Below, one piece after another: positions 1,256-7,316 of a stretch of DNA of 9,321 nucleotides. The stretch lies in IMG/VR virus record IMGVR_UViG_2728369185_000012; one strand, written 5' to 3'. A program made the position numbers and the translations under genes. Source of the stretch: a virus. Taxonomy: Duplodnaviria > Heunggongvirae > Uroviricota > Caudoviricetes. Under the pieces are notes generated by a model that worked only from the letters and a program-made list of their open reading frames with translations, ran no database searches and was not told where the DNA came from. How positions within the stretch are numbered: position 1 is the first letter of the stretch; each line of letters begins with the position of its first letter.

Positions 1256-1801
1256 TCATATTGCCCCCAGCATGGTGGTGACCATCGCCATCAATGGACC
1301 AGCCAGATCCGGGTCCACTCGAAACATCGACACAATGCCTTCACTCATCTCCTTCAGTTTCTGGTGGCGTGGTGCGTTGAGAATGACCGCCTGCTTTGCC
1401 TCACTGAGTTCCTTTTCCATTTCAGCCAGCCGAGCCATGAAGCTATCCTGCTCAACCAGGTGGCCGCGATATTCCAGCGGTAGTACCGCCAGAATTGCCG
1501 GGGTCAGTTCACGCACGTTATTTCGGTATTTTTCAGAATCGAATTTGTTATCGAGGAAGCGGAACAGCTTCTGGCGTGCACGACTGACATCATCAGGAAA
1601 ATCGATGGTGCCGCCGCCCTGTGCTCGATACTCATTCACAATGAGTGCGGCAACTACATCCTGATTATCTTCAGCAGACCAGGCGCGGACGGCATCACGA
1701 ATTTTTTCGTGGCCTGGCACCTGTTTTATTTGAGAACGATTTATCACCGCAGTCGGGCTAAATCCGCTAGTCTGTTGGTATGTAAGTGGTTGCATAATCA
1801 T
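1256..1801 (-). CDS. CII-position regulatory protein (YdaT-like, CII functional equivalent), 181 aa
   Basis: ORF between cro and O on the same strand. ATG at 1799-1801 with a weak AAGG upstream; the stop overlaps the upstream in-frame extension of O. The protein (MIMQPLTYQQTSGF...) is not lambda CII. Its position and size fit the YdaS/YdaT-type immunity modules of CP-933P/Rac-like prophages; family assignment is from memory, not a search. Confidence 0.65.
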   Translation of the reverse strand: MIMQPLTYQQTSGFSPTAVINRSQIKQVPGHEKIRDAVRAWSAEDNQDVVAALIVNEYRAQGGGTIDFPDDVSRARQKLFRFLDNKFDSEKYRNNVRELTPAILAVLPLEYRGHLVEQDSFMARLAEMEKELSEAKQAVILNAPRHQKLKEMSEGIVSMFRVDPDLAGPLMAMVTTMLGAI

Positions 1802-2084: not shown

Positions 2085-2113
2085 ATAATAGCAATGCGTA
2101 TTAACCATGGCAA
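2085..2113 (-). promoter_or_regulatory. PR-like sigma70 promoter for cro with overlapping operator (OR1-like site at about 2085-2103; second AATAGCAAA copy at 2112-2120)
   Basis: On the minus strand: -35 TTGCCA (plus 2108-2113), 17-bp spacer, -10 TATTAT (plus 2085-2090), about 25 nt upstream of the cro RBS. The 19-mer spanning spacer and -10 (TAATACGCATTGCTATTAT) matches the PL unit at 3966-3984 in 15 of 19 positions. Confidence 0.45.
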
Positions 2114-2127
2114 TAGCAAAACGTGTT

Positions 2128-2156
2128 TTGACCATCAATACGCAAGCGTATAAATT
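2128..2156 (+). promoter_or_regulatory. PRM-like promoter candidate for cI (weak; transcript probably leaderless)
   Basis: -35 TTGACC (2128-2133) and -10 TATAAA/TAAATT (2149-2156) with a 15-17 bp spacer, placing the start site at or near the ATG at 2164. There is no Shine-Dalgarno before 2164, as with lambda cI from PRM. Palindrome ATACGCAAGCGTAT at 2138-2151 overlaps it. Confidence 0.3.
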
Positions 2157-2163
2157 AAAACTT

Positions 2164-2856
2164 ATGAAAAAAGAAACTCTTGCTGATCGCTTAAACCTAG
2201 CGATGGAACAATCTGGGATGTCTCAAGGCGCTCTTGCAAAGGCGTCTGGCGTAGCTCAACCCACAATCTGGAGACTGACAAGCGGCAACGCGCGCGGCTC
2301 AACAAAAATTGTTGAAATAGCTAATGCATTGGGTGTTCGAACAGAGTGGCTCTCATCAGGCATAGGCCCGATGAGAAATGACGGTCAACAATCAGGGAAG
2401 CCTACTGTCAACCATTCCAAATACTTCAAGATTGACGTTCTTGATATAGAAGTCAGTGCTGGGCCGGGAGTCATCAACCGTGAGTTTGTAGAAGTCCTAC
2501 GCTCGGTTGAGTACTCGTTTGACGATGCTCGTCACATGTTCGATGGCAGGAAGGCGGAAAATATCCGCATCATTAACGTGCGTGGTGACAGCATGTCAGG
2601 AACGATCGAACCAGGTGATCTGCTGTTCGTTGATATCACGGTTAAATCTTTCGACGGTGATGGCATCTATGCGTTTCTGTACGACGACACCGCCCATGTA
2701 AAGCGCCTGCAAATGATGAAGGATAAGCTGCTGGTTATCTCTGATAACAAGAGCTACTCACCGTGGGACCCGATCGAGAAAGACGAGATGAACCGGGTGT
2801 TCATCTTCGGTAAGGTTATTGGGAGCATGCCCCAGACGTACAGGAAACATGGATAA
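2164..2856 (+). CDS. cI: CI-type prophage repressor (N-terminal HTH plus C-terminal LexA/S24 autopeptidase domain), about 230 aa
   Basis: HTH SQGALAKASGVAQPTIWRL; candidate Ala-Gly cleavage site (EVSAGPG); S24 catalytic motifs GDSM (Ser) and HVKRL (Lys). Start chosen at ATG 2164 (MKKETL...) to leave room for the divergent operators; the ORF-track start at 2107 is an alternative. Stop TAA at 2854-2856. Confidence 0.85.
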   Translation: MKKETLADRLNLAMEQSGMSQGALAKASGVAQPTIWRLTSGNARGSTKIVEIANALGVRTEWLSSGIGPMRNDGQQSGKPTVNHSKYFKIDVLDIEVSAGPGVINREFVEVLRSVEYSFDDARHMFDGRKAENIRIINVRGDSMSGTIEPGDLLFVDITVKSFDGDGIYAFLYDDTAHVKRLQMMKDKLLVISDNKSYSPWDPIEKDEMNRVFIFGKVIGSMPQTYRKHG

Positions 2857-2922: not shown

Positions 2923-3786
2923 ATGGATTGTGACGCTTTACAGGATATAAAAATCTCTCTTAGGTATGACGGAAAAGATGCTTTAAATCATGAAATAGAT
3001 TTGAACTGCCTAGGAGAATCCCTAAAGGGTTTTTCTAAAGTTCTCTCAACAGCAGCTTCTTTCTCTGTTACACAAAAATATAGTAAATACATTAATTATC
3101 AGGAAGTTAAGGTTTACGCACGCGAAGCAAAAGCTAACTGCTTTACTCTTGAAGCAGTTCTTAACTTCGCCACTCAGAACCAGTTGTTCTCGGGGATCGC
3201 CGCAACTATACTTGGCGCAATACTACAATATATTTTTGCGAGAAATTCTAACAAGAAAGATGAAATGAAAGCTTTGCAGCAGTCACTTGAAAAGGCCATA
3301 GAGGCACTAGGAAACAAGGATGCTGGAACCATTGATAAGTTGATCTCTTTGATTGACCGAATGGCTGTAGAGCTTCGCCCCTCTGTAAGGCAGGCAGTAT
3401 CACCTATTGGTAATACTTGCGATCAGATAAGTGTTGCAACAAATGTTGACGGCTGCCTTCTAAAAGTTAATGAGAGAGATAAAGCTGAAATTGATAGGCT
3501 TGATGATGATGAAGTTCTCGGTCTTCGTGAGTATCGTGCTTTTCTTACAGAATTTGATGCACAAAATATGACAGCTAAAATAATTTTAGATGGTGATGAC
3601 TCAAAAAAGAGAATCACTGCTGAAATTAGCGATCCAGCTGCAGGAAAGAAGAATAACCCGTATATTAGAGCTCTTAGTGCATATATATCAACCAAAGGTG
3701 ATCCATCTGCAGTATTCACTATAACCGCAAAGGCTACTGTTAAAAAAGGCCAGATAAACAGGTTATTTATTGTAGATGCGAAATGA
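2923..3786 (+). CDS. Hypothetical protein of unknown function, 287 aa, cotranscribed with cI; AT-rich moron in the slot equivalent to lambda rexA-rexB; candidate defence/exclusion gene
   Basis: Clean ORF starting 67 bp after the cI stop on the same strand, with an intrinsic terminator immediately downstream. The first 60 nt sample about 37% G+C. One hydrophobic segment ([19 protein letters not shown], about nt 3184-3240) lies between hydrophilic domains. I recognise no similarity to RexA/RexB or any other family. Confidence 0.8.
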
Positions 3787-3788
3787 TT

Positions 3789-3817
3789 TCCCCGGCCGTC
3801 GTGCCGGGTTTTCTTTT
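3789..3817 (+). terminator. Rho-independent terminator ending the cI-moron operon
   Basis: Stem CCCGGC (3791-3796), loop CGTCGT, stem GCCGGG (3803-3808), followed by TTTTCTTTT (3809-3817), directly after the stop at 3786. Confidence 0.75.
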
Positions 3818-3938
3818 GCCTCCCCTCATCACACACCGTTCAAAAAACCACCATAACCCCCGCTTCAGTTATCGCTATGCGATGCAAGTCACAAAATTAA
3901 TTCCTTTTGCTATCAAACAGTTAATATCAAAATGCATC

Positions 3939-3984
3939 AATCAATAGCAATAAGTATTGATATCACTAATAGCAATAGCTATTA
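3939..3984 (+). promoter_or_regulatory. PL-like sigma70 promoter with two operator sites (OL)
   Basis: -35 TTGATA (3956-3961), 17-bp spacer, -10 TATTAT (3979-3984). An 18-bp palindrome TAATAGC-AATA-GCTATTA (3966-3983) overlaps the spacer and -10. A second site, TCAATAGCAATAAGTATTGA (3940-3959), has TCAATA/TATTGA inverted arms. The 9-mer AATAGCAAT occurs at 3942-3950 and 3967-3975. Confidence 0.5.
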
Positions 3985-4178
3985 TCACCATGTCGCAACA
4001 ACACAACGATACGGCAACCACCTGATTCGCCGTTGCGATGACCGCTTAGATCCGCAGCTTGAATTTCAGCAGGCTCCGGGGAGTGCGAGGGGTGAAGCGG
4101 ACGCGTTAACGTCGGTGTGACCAGCTGAAATCAACTCAACACTTCATACCTCAGTCGCTTCAACGAGGCGGCTTAGTT

Positions 4179-4469
4179 ATGACAACCGGCGGCCATCCAC
4201 CGCCTGAATACGCGCAGAAGTCTCTATATGTTCAGCAGCCCAGCTTACGGGCAGGAGTTTTTATGGTTCATCAACATTACGGAACTCAGACCGTTAATCG
4301 CGGTGCCGTCCGGCCAGGTATGCTGGTTAAACACAAAGATGGTACCTGGACGGCATCAGCTAATTTGCGCGGTCGGCTTTACTTGCATCGCGGCATCGAA
4401 CGAACGTACACAAAAGATTTGCTCGTGGAGGTTTACCTGAATGGTACTGGCGGTGGTCTGAGCCACTAA
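4179..4469 (+). CDS. Hypothetical basic protein, 96 aa; first ORF downstream of the PL-like promoter (N-position); coding status uncertain
   Basis: ATG at 4179 preceded by GAGGCGG. The protein is net basic and Gly/Pro-rich (MTTGGHPPPEY...) with no Arg-rich N-terminal motif. No homology recognised. Confidence 0.3.
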   Translation: MTTGGHPPPEYAQKSLYVQQPSLRAGVFMVHQHYGTQTVNRGAVRPGMLVKHKDGTWTASANLRGRLYLHRGIERTYTKDLLVEVYLNGTGGGLSH

Positions 4470-4473
4470 CTAC

Positions 4474-4779
4474 TCACTTGTTTGGGCCGTGTGGAGCCAA
4501 AGCAAATTCAAGGTTGTAGATACTCCCATCAGGGGCTTTGAAATCAACCTCAAACCGAGATGGCGGATTGAATGGATCGAGTACATTTTCTGCTACGCAT
4601 GTAGATCTCCAATTGATATGGCCTTTGCCAAGCGAGCGAGATTCCCACCAAGCTCTCCAGGTCTGGTCTTGCGGTTGATCACTCCCCTTTTCCCTTACAT
4701 ACCAATGATTCTTTTTCGACTGCTTACCCATTTCTGCGGTTGGGTACATCGGAGAAGACTTTAACTTATCAATCAGCAT
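4474..4779 (-). CDS. Hypothetical protein, about 101 aa, transcribed opposite to the PL operon (sieB-like orientation)
   Basis: ATG at 4777-4779 with AAGGTG 6 nt upstream on the minus strand; the ORF-track start at 4788 is GTG. The protein (MLIDKLKSSPMYPTAEMGKQSKKNHWYVREKG...) has balanced composition, whereas the plus-strand ORF 4489-4764 on the opposite strand looks less protein-like. No homology recognised. Confidence 0.45.
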   Translation of the reverse strand: MLIDKLKSSPMYPTAEMGKQSKKNHWYVREKGSDQPQDQTWRAWWESRSLGKGHINWRSTCVAENVLDPFNPPSRFEVDFKAPDGSIYNLEFALAPHGPNK

Positions 4780-4917
4780 TCTAGACACCTTATTTATCAG
4801 ATTTTGAGCAAGACATAGTGTGATCCAACATTTTGATTAATCAAGCGAGTTCATTCAAACAACTATGCAGTTAACGCACTGTCTGGATCCGCACATCAAA
4901 ATTTCAGGAGTTTATCC

Positions 4918-5214
4918 ATGAACGCTTATTACATTCAGGATCGTCTTGAGGCTCAGAGCTGGGCGCGTCACTACCAGCAGATCGCCCGTGAAGAGAAAGA
5001 GGCAGAACTGGCAGACGACATGGAAAAAGGCCTGCCCCAGCACCTGTTTGAATCGCTATGCATCGATCATTTACAACGCCACGGGGCCAGCAAAAAAGCC
5101 ATTACCCGTGCGTTTGATGACGATGTTGAGTTTCAGGAGCGCATGGCAGAACACATCCGGTACATGGTTGAAACCATTGCTCACCACCAGGTTGATATTG
5201 ATTCAGAGGTATAA
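4918..5214 (+). CDS. gam: Gam, host RecBCD nuclease inhibitor (short GamS-length form, 98 aa)
   Basis: Protein [60 protein letters not shown]... matches lambda Gam from the GamS start. AGGAG RBS at 4906-4910. An in-frame TGA at 4834-4836 and the absence of an upstream in-frame ATG rule out the long form. Confidence 0.95.
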
Positions 5215-5219
5215 AACGG

Positions 5220-6065
5220 ATGAGTACAGCACTCGCAACGCTGGCTGGGAAGCTGGCTGAACGTGTCGGCATGGATTCTGTCGACCCACAGGAACTGATC
5301 ACCACTCTTCGCCAGANNNNNNNNNNNNNNNNNNNNNNNNNNNNNNNNNNNNNNNNNNNNNNNNNNNNNNNNNNNNNNNNNNNNNNNNNNNNNNNNNNNN
5401 NNNNNNNNNNNNNNNNNNNNNNNNNNNNNNNNNNNNNNNNNNNNNNNNNNNNNNNNNNNNNNNNNNNNNNNNNNNNNNNNNNNNNNNNNNNNNNNNNCGT
5501 TCCGGTGGTGGGCGTTGATGGCTGGTCCCGCATCATCAATGAAAACCAGCAGTTTGATGGCATGGACTTTGAGCAGGACAATGAATCCTGTACATGCCGG
5601 ATTTACCGCAAGGACCGTAATCATCCGATCTGCGTTACCGAATGGATGGATGAATGCCGCCGCGAACCATTCAAAACTCGCGAAGGCAGAGAAATCACGG
5701 GGCCGTGGCAGTCGCATCCCAAACGGATGTTACGGCATAAAGCCATGATTCAGTGTGCCCGTCTGGCCTTCGGATTTGCTGGTATCTATGACAAGGATGA
5801 AGCCGAGCGCATTGTCGAAAATACCGCATACACTGCAGAACGTCAGCCGGAACGCGACATCACTCCGGTTAACGATGAAACCATGCAGGAGATTAACACT
5901 CTGCTGATCGCCCTGGATAAAACATGGGATGACGACTTATTGCCGCTCTGTTCCCAGATATTTCGCCGCGACATTCGCGCCTCGTCAGAACTGACACAGG
6001 CCGAAGCAGTGAAAGCTCTTGGATTCCTGAAACAGAAAGCCACTGAGCAGAAGGTGGCAGCATGA
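5220..6065 (+). CDS. bet: Bet (Redbeta) single-strand annealing recombinase; the central part is masked by an N-run
   Basis: The N-terminus [32 protein letters not shown] and the C-terminal 188 aa ([26 protein letters not shown]...ATEQKVAA) match lambda Bet. Reading frame is preserved across N 5317-5497. Start is 5 nt after the gam stop; the stop overlaps the exo start (ATGA). Confidence 0.9.
5317..5497. other. Run of 181 undetermined bases (N) inside bet
   Basis: Directly seen. The flanking codons are in the same frame. Confidence 1.
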
Positions 6066-6742: not shown

Positions 6743-6921
6743 CGCATCCTCACGATAATATCCGGGTAGGCGCGATCACTTTCGTCTACTCCGTTACAAA
6801 GCGAGGCTGGGTATTTCCCGGCCTTTCTGTTATCAGAAATCCACTGAAAGCACAGCGGCTGGCTGAGAAGATAAATAATAAACGGGAGGCGGTATGCACA
6901 AAGCATCTCCTGTTGAGTTAA
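6739..6921 (+). CDS. Lambda orf60a-like small protein, 60 aa
   Basis: [60 protein letters not shown] matches lambda orf60a as recalled. ATG at 6739 overlaps the exo stop (ATGA). Confidence 0.8.
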
Positions 6922-7006
6922 GAACGAGTATTGAGATGGCACATAGCCTTGCTCAAATTGGAGTCAGGTTTGTGCCAATACCAGCAGAAACAGACGAAGA
7001 ATTTCA
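6894..7006 (+). CDS. Lambda orf63-like small protein; only the first 37 codons are visible and the 3' end lies inside the N-run
   Basis: GGGAGG RBS at 6883-6888 and ATG at 6894. [37 protein letters not shown] matches the lambda orf63 N-terminus. By the length of lambda orf63 the stop would fall near 7085, inside the masked run. Confidence 0.75.
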
Positions 7007-7100
7007 NNNNNNNNNNNNNNNNNNNNNNNNNNNNNNNNNNNNNNNNNNNNNNNNNNNNNNNNNNNNNNNNNNNNNNNNNNNNNNNNNNNNNNNNNNNNNN
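7007..7100. other. Run of 94 undetermined bases (N) covering the orf63 3' end and the junction with orf61
   Basis: Directly seen. Its length is consistent with the missing orf63 codons plus a short spacer. Confidence 1.
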
Positions 7101-7316
7101 ATGACACCTCAGCAAGAAAACGCCCTTCGCAGCATTGCCCGTCAGGCTAATTCTGAAATCAAAAAAGCCAGACAGCATTTTCCGGATAAAAACGTCGATG
7201 ACATTTGCCGTAGCGTACTAAAGAAGCACCGCGAAACGGTAACGCTGATGGGATTCACACCGACTCATTTAAGCCTGGCGATCGGCATGTTGAACGGCGT
7301 CTTTAAGGAACGGTGA
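7101..7316 (+). CDS. Lambda orf61-like small protein (start could lie inside the N-run)
   Basis: MTPQQENALRSIARQANSEIKKARQHFPDKNVDDICRSVLKKHRETVTLMGFTPTHLSLAIGMLNGVFKER with stop TGA at 7314-7316. The ATG at 7101 is the first base after the masked run. Confidence 0.75.
   Translation: MTPQQENALRSIARQANSEIKKARQHFPDKNVDDICRSVLKKHRETVTLMGFTPTHLSLAIGMLNGVFKER

Follow-up and report, generated by a model that had tools for sequence, protein, structure and literature searches.

A conserved opposite-strand gene between kil and gam in the early-left arm of an N-less lambdoid prophage, a candidate accessory locus

The stretch of viral DNA analyzed here (the window; 9,321 nucleotides) represents the early-left arm of a lambdoid prophage located beside tRNA-Arg at the DLP12 site (intD). 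The prophage is N-less, and its PL direction corresponds to the plus strand of the window. The genes and elements of this region are listed below in gene order, with the opposite-strand gene between kil and gam designated orfX.

Leftmost in gene order, minus strand: O-like replication gene and YdaT-domain gene
Next in gene order, before cI, minus strand: cro-like gene
2107-2856, plus strand: cI
2923-3786, plus strand: DUF7946/DUF7947 gene in the rex slot
3791-3808: terminator between the DUF7946/DUF7947 gene and the PL-like promoter
3943-3958 and 3968-3983: two 16-nt operator repeats flanking the PL-like promoter
3957-3985 (whole element 3943-3985), plus strand: PL-like promoter TTGATA-17-TATTAT, setting the direction that orfX opposes
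4263-4469, plus strand: kil of the KilR type, a member of the FtsZ inhibitor family and the first ORF after PL
4435-4901: 467-bp cassette not found in close relatives, comprising the last ~12 kil codons, orfX and the orfX upstream region
4474-4779, minus strand: orfX, located between kil and gam; coding sequence for 101 aa (WP_000904075.1; phrog_16212), stop codon TGA at 4476-4474
4780-4917: spacer of 138 bp from the orfX start to gam
4786-4791, minus strand: Shine-Dalgarno sequence AAGGTG, located 6 nt upstream of the ATG; most relatives share AAGGTGA
4822-4817 or 4820-4815, minus strand: predicted -10 hexamer of orfX, CACACT (spacer 16) or CACTAT (spacer 18), both weak (3/6)
4833-4844: perfect 12-bp palindrome TTGATTAATCAA, zero mismatches
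4839-4844, minus strand: predicted -35 hexamer TTGATT of orfX, the palindrome half read first on the orfX strand
4918-5214, plus strand: gam, divergent from orfX (PF06064, E 3e-65)

Downstream of gam are bet, exo and, farther on, int. Two runs of N (masked sequence) fall at ~5318-5600 inside bet and at ~7005-7100 inside ORF 6894-7316. The window lacks N, cIII, ral, ea10 and sieB, and no N-like ORF was found between the PL-like promoter and kil (window 3986-4262). The first-pass annotation had suggested that this block replaces lambda cIII, kil, ral and sieB, which is not supported, since a kil gene of the KilR type is present. The same annotation had treated 4179-4469 as an unknown ORF, but its 3' part (4263-4469) is this kil gene: it matches phrog_294 (E 1.4e-36) and NF008465 (E 9e-17, though under the curated cut-off) and is labeled 'cell division inhibitor protein' by PGAP.

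A put-like RNA antiterminator has been proposed for other N-less lambdoid phages (PMC12315714), and by analogy the phage of the window may use one too. A search of Rfam with 3780-5000 produced no match at E<=1, and the fold z-score was only -0.55. Within the PL leader of ~270 nt, the part at ~4143-4223 is 85-87% conserved in phi80 and Enterobacter phages. A 62-aa ORF (3932-4120) without a family match overlaps the PL-like promoter and its operators.

On the other side of the immunity region, the gene in the cII position (1256-1801, minus strand) bears the RefSeq name 'toxin YdaT domain-containing protein' and the cro-like gene encodes a 77-aa HTH protein, so that the right immunity side resembles the Rac-type (YdaS/YdaT) arrangement rather than lambda cro-cII. 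The DUF7946+DUF7947 protein (2923-3786, plus strand), encoded at the rexAB position between cI and PL, has a weak match to the PADLOC family PDC-S42 (E 1.5e-4). In similar prophages the slot between cI and PL (L001 3797-5347, L002 944-2346, L050 944-2494 and L052 1289-1883) differs in cargo, which elsewhere consists of two hypothetical proteins, DUF6932 with a hypothetical protein, a hypothetical protein with a membrane protein, or nothing annotated. This slot looks like a variable accessory or defense hotspot that is co-transcribed with the repressor. In L013 and L014, the slot gene was recovered in two tblastn pieces, possibly owing to a frameshift.

A minus-strand ORF at 4474-4779 with an AAGGTG ribosome-binding site, a 138-bp spacer and a perfect palindrome had been described previously at this locus, and all four features are found where they were reported. 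The ORF listing extends the frame to 4474-4788 from a GTG, which falls within the Shine-Dalgarno sequence. The orfX start was assigned to the ATG at 4779-4777 based on the MLI... N-terminus, which is conserved in 17 aligned homologues, in contrast to the upstream extensions; PGAP has the same start. Searches recovered 47 related loci, of which two came from a collection with one genome per species and 45 from IMG/VR, with 36 distinct gene sequences among them. The minus-strand frame is complete in 36 of these 36 genes. Relative to the window gene, pN ranges from 0.13 to 0.30 and pS from 0.70 to 0.88 (saturated), and dN/dS is no higher than 0.17 where calculable. In the minus-strand frame, the numbers of variable codon columns at positions 1, 2 and 3 are 57, 58 and 98 of 106, respectively. 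A protein alignment of 17 sequences, including 16 homologues with 63-99% identity to the window protein, contains 34 invariant columns, among them five Trp residues, H54 and C61.

The window allele also has an open 91-aa ORF on the plus strand (4489-4764), which runs antisense to orfX in the PL direction, and orfX could in principle be no gene at all, being a chance ORF or the shadow of this plus-strand frame. This has next to no probability, because ORF 4489-4764 is open only in the four E. coli alleles and is broken in all 32 non-E. coli sequences (longest open stretch 26-65 codons), and third codon positions in the orfX frame vary far more than first and second positions. Frame conservation and the codon-position pattern refute orfX as a shadow ORF and identify ORF 4489-4764 as the shadow instead. 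Thus, as judged from codon-level comparison, orfX is shown to be a genuine protein-coding gene under strong purifying selection, and its original description as a separate small gene on the opposite strand stands.

The predicted orfX protein is basic (11.7 kDa, pI 8.8) and, as noted in the first-pass annotation, hydrophilic and Trp-rich, with a GRAVY value of -0.94 and five Trp residues, all of which are invariant within the family. It has no predicted membrane segment (maximal 19-residue Kyte-Doolittle mean 0.19). The protein had not been recognized from its sequence, and none of the libraries tried here gave a characterized relative. Its sole match in PHROGs is phrog_16212 ('unknown function'), the RefSeq entry WP_000904075.1 is 'hypothetical', and all source names read 'hypothetical protein'. 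There were no matches to Pfam and NCBIfam profiles, no PADLOC defense families at E<=1, no tblastn matches among 50,697 phage records and no HMM matches to PDB sequences. A search for fold relatives of the AF2 model was also negative, but this negative is soft given the moderate confidence of the model (pLDDT 75.9). A literature search for WP_000904075 turned up nothing, and none of the inspected papers on kil, gam, morons and lambdoid phages treats orfX.

Searching 5.8 billion proteins with a word index gave 19 clusters, all of them full-length members of the orfX family or N-terminal fragments and chimeras of the E. coli protein. When 1.84 billion representatives were searched exhaustively with an HMM, the only additions were one more full-length representative, some fragments and one repeat protein. 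The hosts belong to Escherichia, Shigella, Klebsiella, Enterobacter, Citrobacter, Lelliottia, Cronobacter, Raoultella and Huaxiibacter, and the exact E. coli protein is present on at least 1000 public contigs. Based on these searches, orfX appears to represent a small orphan family found only in lambdoid prophages of Enterobacteriaceae. Separately, P0021, a metagenomic dockerin-containing repeat protein of 1110 aa, carries 10 copies of the motif ...VDQVSWSLWWDNILGTSGHIIWAS..., which match orfX residues 24-61, the most conserved stretch of the protein (SDQP.DQSW..WW.S.SLG.GHI.WRS). The hmmsearch E-value is 1.5e-11 summed over the repeats, and hhalign to one repeat gave a probability of 74% (E 2.8e-5). 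This likeness could reflect a shared small structural motif or chance.

The upstream region of orfX has a conserved organization. A TTGA[T/C]N hexamer is located 61-82 nt before the orfX start in 36 of 36 distinct upstream regions, and all 36 have a -10-like hexamer at a spacing of 16-18 nt, with the sequence CAGAAT (18 regions), CAAAAT (10), TATAAG (3), CACACT (3) or TGGATT (2). When 14 upstream lineages were aligned (59% identity on average), two conserved blocks emerged, CTTGATTAA and, 16-18 nt on, CA(G/A)AAT. A promoter scan independently found the homologous site in the related locus L023 (TTGATA-16-CAAAAT, 9/12). The same scan did not call the orfX promoter in the window, which matches the consensus at 7/12 positions (TTGATT 4/6, CACACT 3/6), and because of this weak match and the negative scan its assignment rests on conservation. 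The in silico evidence agrees with the earlier proposal that orfX has its own upstream control region.

The palindrome that contains the TTGATT hexamer exceeds chance expectation weakly: a perfect 12-bp palindrome occurs in just 4.3% of shuffled 138-bp spacers, whereas the whole window has three such palindromes against 2.4 +/- 1.5 in shuffled sequences, which is a chance number. It had been proposed as a regulator-binding site, and lack of conservation in relatives had been named as evidence against that role. No allele other than that of E. coli shows perfect symmetry; in relatives 1-5 pairs are mismatched (2-5 in most lineages). Only the TTGATT half is invariant, paired with the -10-like hexamer at 16-18 nt, whereas 3 of the 6 positions in the other half are variable. 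For this reason the conserved elements are best read as a predicted sigma-70 promoter and not as a symmetric operator. A true operator for a dimeric host or phage regulator of orfX, gam or both, conceivable in the E. coli allele, would fit the perfect symmetry, the overlap with the predicted -35 box (where repressor sites are typically found) and the persistence of the 10-bp core TGATTAATCA in about five otherwise diverged upstream lineages. However, the sequence is also unlike the cI operators of this phage and no plus-strand gam promoter can be built on it, which together with the variable half and the chance count make an operator decidedly unlikely. Two further candidates were rejected. 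Neither a LexA box nor a cI operator was seen by inspection at the orfX promoter, and the scan for cI operator-like 16-mers placed such sites elsewhere, at OR and OL only. A gam promoter on the plus strand using the palindrome would have no -10 hexamer at usable spacing.

The borders of the cassette were defined by BLASTN comparison with phage Perceval, which is 93% identical to the window over 334 bp up to position 4434, through most of kil, and again 97% identical over 99 bp from position 4902, at the gam ribosome-binding site, into gam. Perceval and the E. coli R2 and 07_3986 prophages have only 75 nt between kil and gam. The left joint of the cassette thus lies within the last ~12 codons of kil. 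Among 5426 complete E. coli genomes, 2212 carry this kil type and 27 carry orfX, and those with orfX have a distinct kil allele (a class of >=99% identity with 28 genomes). Because the kil type is present in 2212 genomes and orfX in only 27, orfX is, on sequence comparison, a rare insertion. The G+C content of its coding part (0.48-0.51) is similar to that of kil and gam (0.49-0.53), and only the upstream spacer is A+T-rich (G+C 0.37). Many relatives have a G+C-rich hairpin-like element, e.g. ccgggctggcttcacgcagccggg (PL strand), immediately ahead of the gam-like gene's ribosome-binding site. It is found in L021-L044 at ~90-125 nt upstream of orfX, in L050 at 3185-3230 and also in Perceval, and the window has a different sequence in its place.

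At every locus, orfX opposes the surrounding early operon and is located between the immunity region and the recombination module, always converging on a gene close to PL, either kil or N. Of the 36 distinct gene sequences, 25 meet kil tail to tail, and in all kil-linked loci exactly 4 nt separate the two stop codons, including L016 and L017, where kil is only 38% identical. In L040 and L045, orfX is tail to tail (12 nt) with a homologue of lambda N (PF11438). No kil is present within 5 kb of orfX in 11 of the 36 sequences (L003, L020, L026, L027, L038, L040 and L045-49), and kil occurs without orfX in ~2185 of the 2212 kil-bearing E. coli genomes (~99%) as well as in 16 sequenced phages. In the window, a scan revealed no intrinsic terminator after orfX, and the downstream RNA has a fold z-score of +0.59, whereas a bidirectional terminator follows orfX in L047-49, where the gene is not next to kil.

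This arrangement resembles that of lambda sieB, as had been suggested from its orientation relative to PL: sieB (34482-35036, plus strand) abuts N (35037-35438, minus strand) tail to tail, and orfX has the same relationship with kil or an N homologue. Both are opposite-strand genes inside the PL operon that converge on and abut the first PL gene. The proteins themselves are different, since lambda SieB is a membrane protein of 184 aa, whereas the orfX product has 101 aa, is predicted to be soluble and lacks a hydrophobic segment. There is no sequence relation between them: hhalign against lambda SieB gave a probability of 0.15%, which led us to reject orfX as a SieB homologue, and no SieB match was found in Pfam or PHROGs. 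Like sieB, orfX is presumed to have its own lysogen-active promoter, with PL transcription necessarily antisense to it. In phage P22, sieB is an opposite-strand gene in the same operon position and is controlled by the antisense RNA sas (PMC7067206, PMC12197685).

The orfX gene also shares several features with morons, a concept introduced for lambdoid phages by Hendrix and Juhala and exemplified by lom, bor and HK97 gene 15. It sits between two genes, kil and gam, that are adjacent in close relatives, and it has its own predicted promoter (weak in the window allele), an orientation independent of the operon and a rare, patchy distribution. Genes antisense to prophage lytic genes and having their own promoter have been described as characteristic accessory (moron) loci (PMC7067206). 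Unlike morons, orfX has no terminator of its own in the window allele (though it has one in L047-49) and has the same base composition as its flanks, and therefore two classical hallmarks of morons are missing; in addition, its left recombination joint lies inside kil and not between genes. Convergent or antisense elements are well known in phages, including lambda OOP/cII, PRE antisense to cro, P22 sar/ant and the face-to-face promoters of coliphage 186. As in those systems, orfX and kil are convergent units that no terminator separates, and their transcripts would be mutually antisense. In contrast to them, the 'antisense' unit of orfX encodes a conserved protein.

Taken together, these data are consistent with orfX being a self-contained accessory unit (moron) acquired with the 467-bp cassette between kil and gam in an N-less lambdoid prophage at the argU/DLP12 site, a reading to which we give roughly an even chance. 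The gene would be transcribed from its own modest sigma-70 promoter, with the TTGATT half of the palindrome as the -35 box and the -10 hexamer 16-18 nt downstream. There is no cI operator at this promoter, and it should therefore be active in the repressed prophage; there is also no terminator between orfX and kil, and the orfX transcript should therefore run antisense into kil. Once PL fires, transcription would proceed antisense through orfX and, by analogy with P22 sieB and sas, should shut it off. The gene would then be expressed in the lysogen and silent while its own phage grows lytically, and such silencing would protect the phage from the orfX protein. By the same analogy, the product is most likely an accessory protein serving the lysogen, which may interfere with incoming phages, acting against superinfection as SieB does, or bind and modulate a host protein. 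A role in exclusion specifically is suggested tentatively and with some doubt, and the protein itself gives no hint of exclusion or defense, having neither a PADLOC match nor, unlike SieB, a membrane segment. Of the functions originally suggested for this gene (accessory, exclusion or toxin-like), the first two are plausible, but nothing supports a toxin-like function.

Two other explanations relate orfX to its neighbors. In N-less phages kil is exposed to any PL leak because it is the first gene after PL, and orfX might restrain it in the lysogen through antisense read-through RNA or through a protein that neutralizes Kil. The exact 4-nt gap, retained even next to the divergent kil of L016 and L017, and the lack of a terminator between the two genes would suit such control, as would the terminator that follows orfX in L047-49, where kil is not adjacent. 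However, the linkage could simply reflect a gap too short to leave room for recombination, and purifying selection across the whole orfX protein makes control by RNA alone unlikely. Moreover, the two genes occur separately, orfX without kil within 5 kb in 11 of 36 sequences and kil without orfX in most kil-bearing E. coli genomes and in 16 phages. The co-occurrence expected of an obligate antidote or partner of Kil, in the manner of toxin-antitoxin systems, is lacking in both directions, and we consider Kil control in general rather unlikely. An equally small probability is given to orfX being an early host-takeover or anti-defense protein of the Ral or Gam class, which would be made upon infection from a constitutive promoter of its own and act in lytic growth, not in the lysogen. 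Many small, soluble host-modifying proteins are encoded in the PL-proximal region of lambdoid phages, and orfX borders the recombination/Gam module at all loci. Against this, its anti-PL orientation at every locus would produce head-on transcription exactly when the protein is needed, and it has no significant similarity to known anti-defense proteins.

Returning to the accessory-unit reading, a more elaborate version would combine it with Kil control, so that orfX and kil form a convergent, terminator-less module with two states. In the lysogen, the orfX promoter would drive production of a protein with a new fold that excludes or aborts superinfecting phages, while the read-through RNA of orfX would silence the PL-proximal toxin gene kil; upon induction, antiterminated PL transcription would turn orfX off and kil on. 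This scenario is quite improbable, but if the module exists, orfX would be the founding member of a new family of single-gene exclusion systems in the sieB niche.

Most likely, orfX is real but not unusual in kind, an uncharacterized moron occupying the niche of sieB. Early operons are already known to harbor morons on the opposite strand, so that this gene will not surprise phage specialists, and no mechanism is visible in its sequence. If it is expressed in lysogens, it would represent an uncharacterized single-gene accessory function in the niche of lambda and P22 sieB, found in lambdoid prophages of Escherichia, Shigella, Klebsiella, Enterobacter, Citrobacter and Cronobacter. Its small and presumably soluble product, inexpensive to assay, makes it a reasonable candidate for exclusion or host-modulator screens, and the invariant 4-nt junction with kil makes the locus well suited to examining how convergent transcription works next to a toxic gene.

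In some relatives without kil, orfX is followed by more small genes on the same strand, such as L026 5459-5629, L047 5704-5961 and L038 5070-5381 (all plus strand in their own records), with no Pfam match. One of these genes encodes a protein of ~56-60 aa with the sequence pattern MSD..NPL...ELI/VKAGKI..., and in those phages a small anti-PL operon may begin with orfX.
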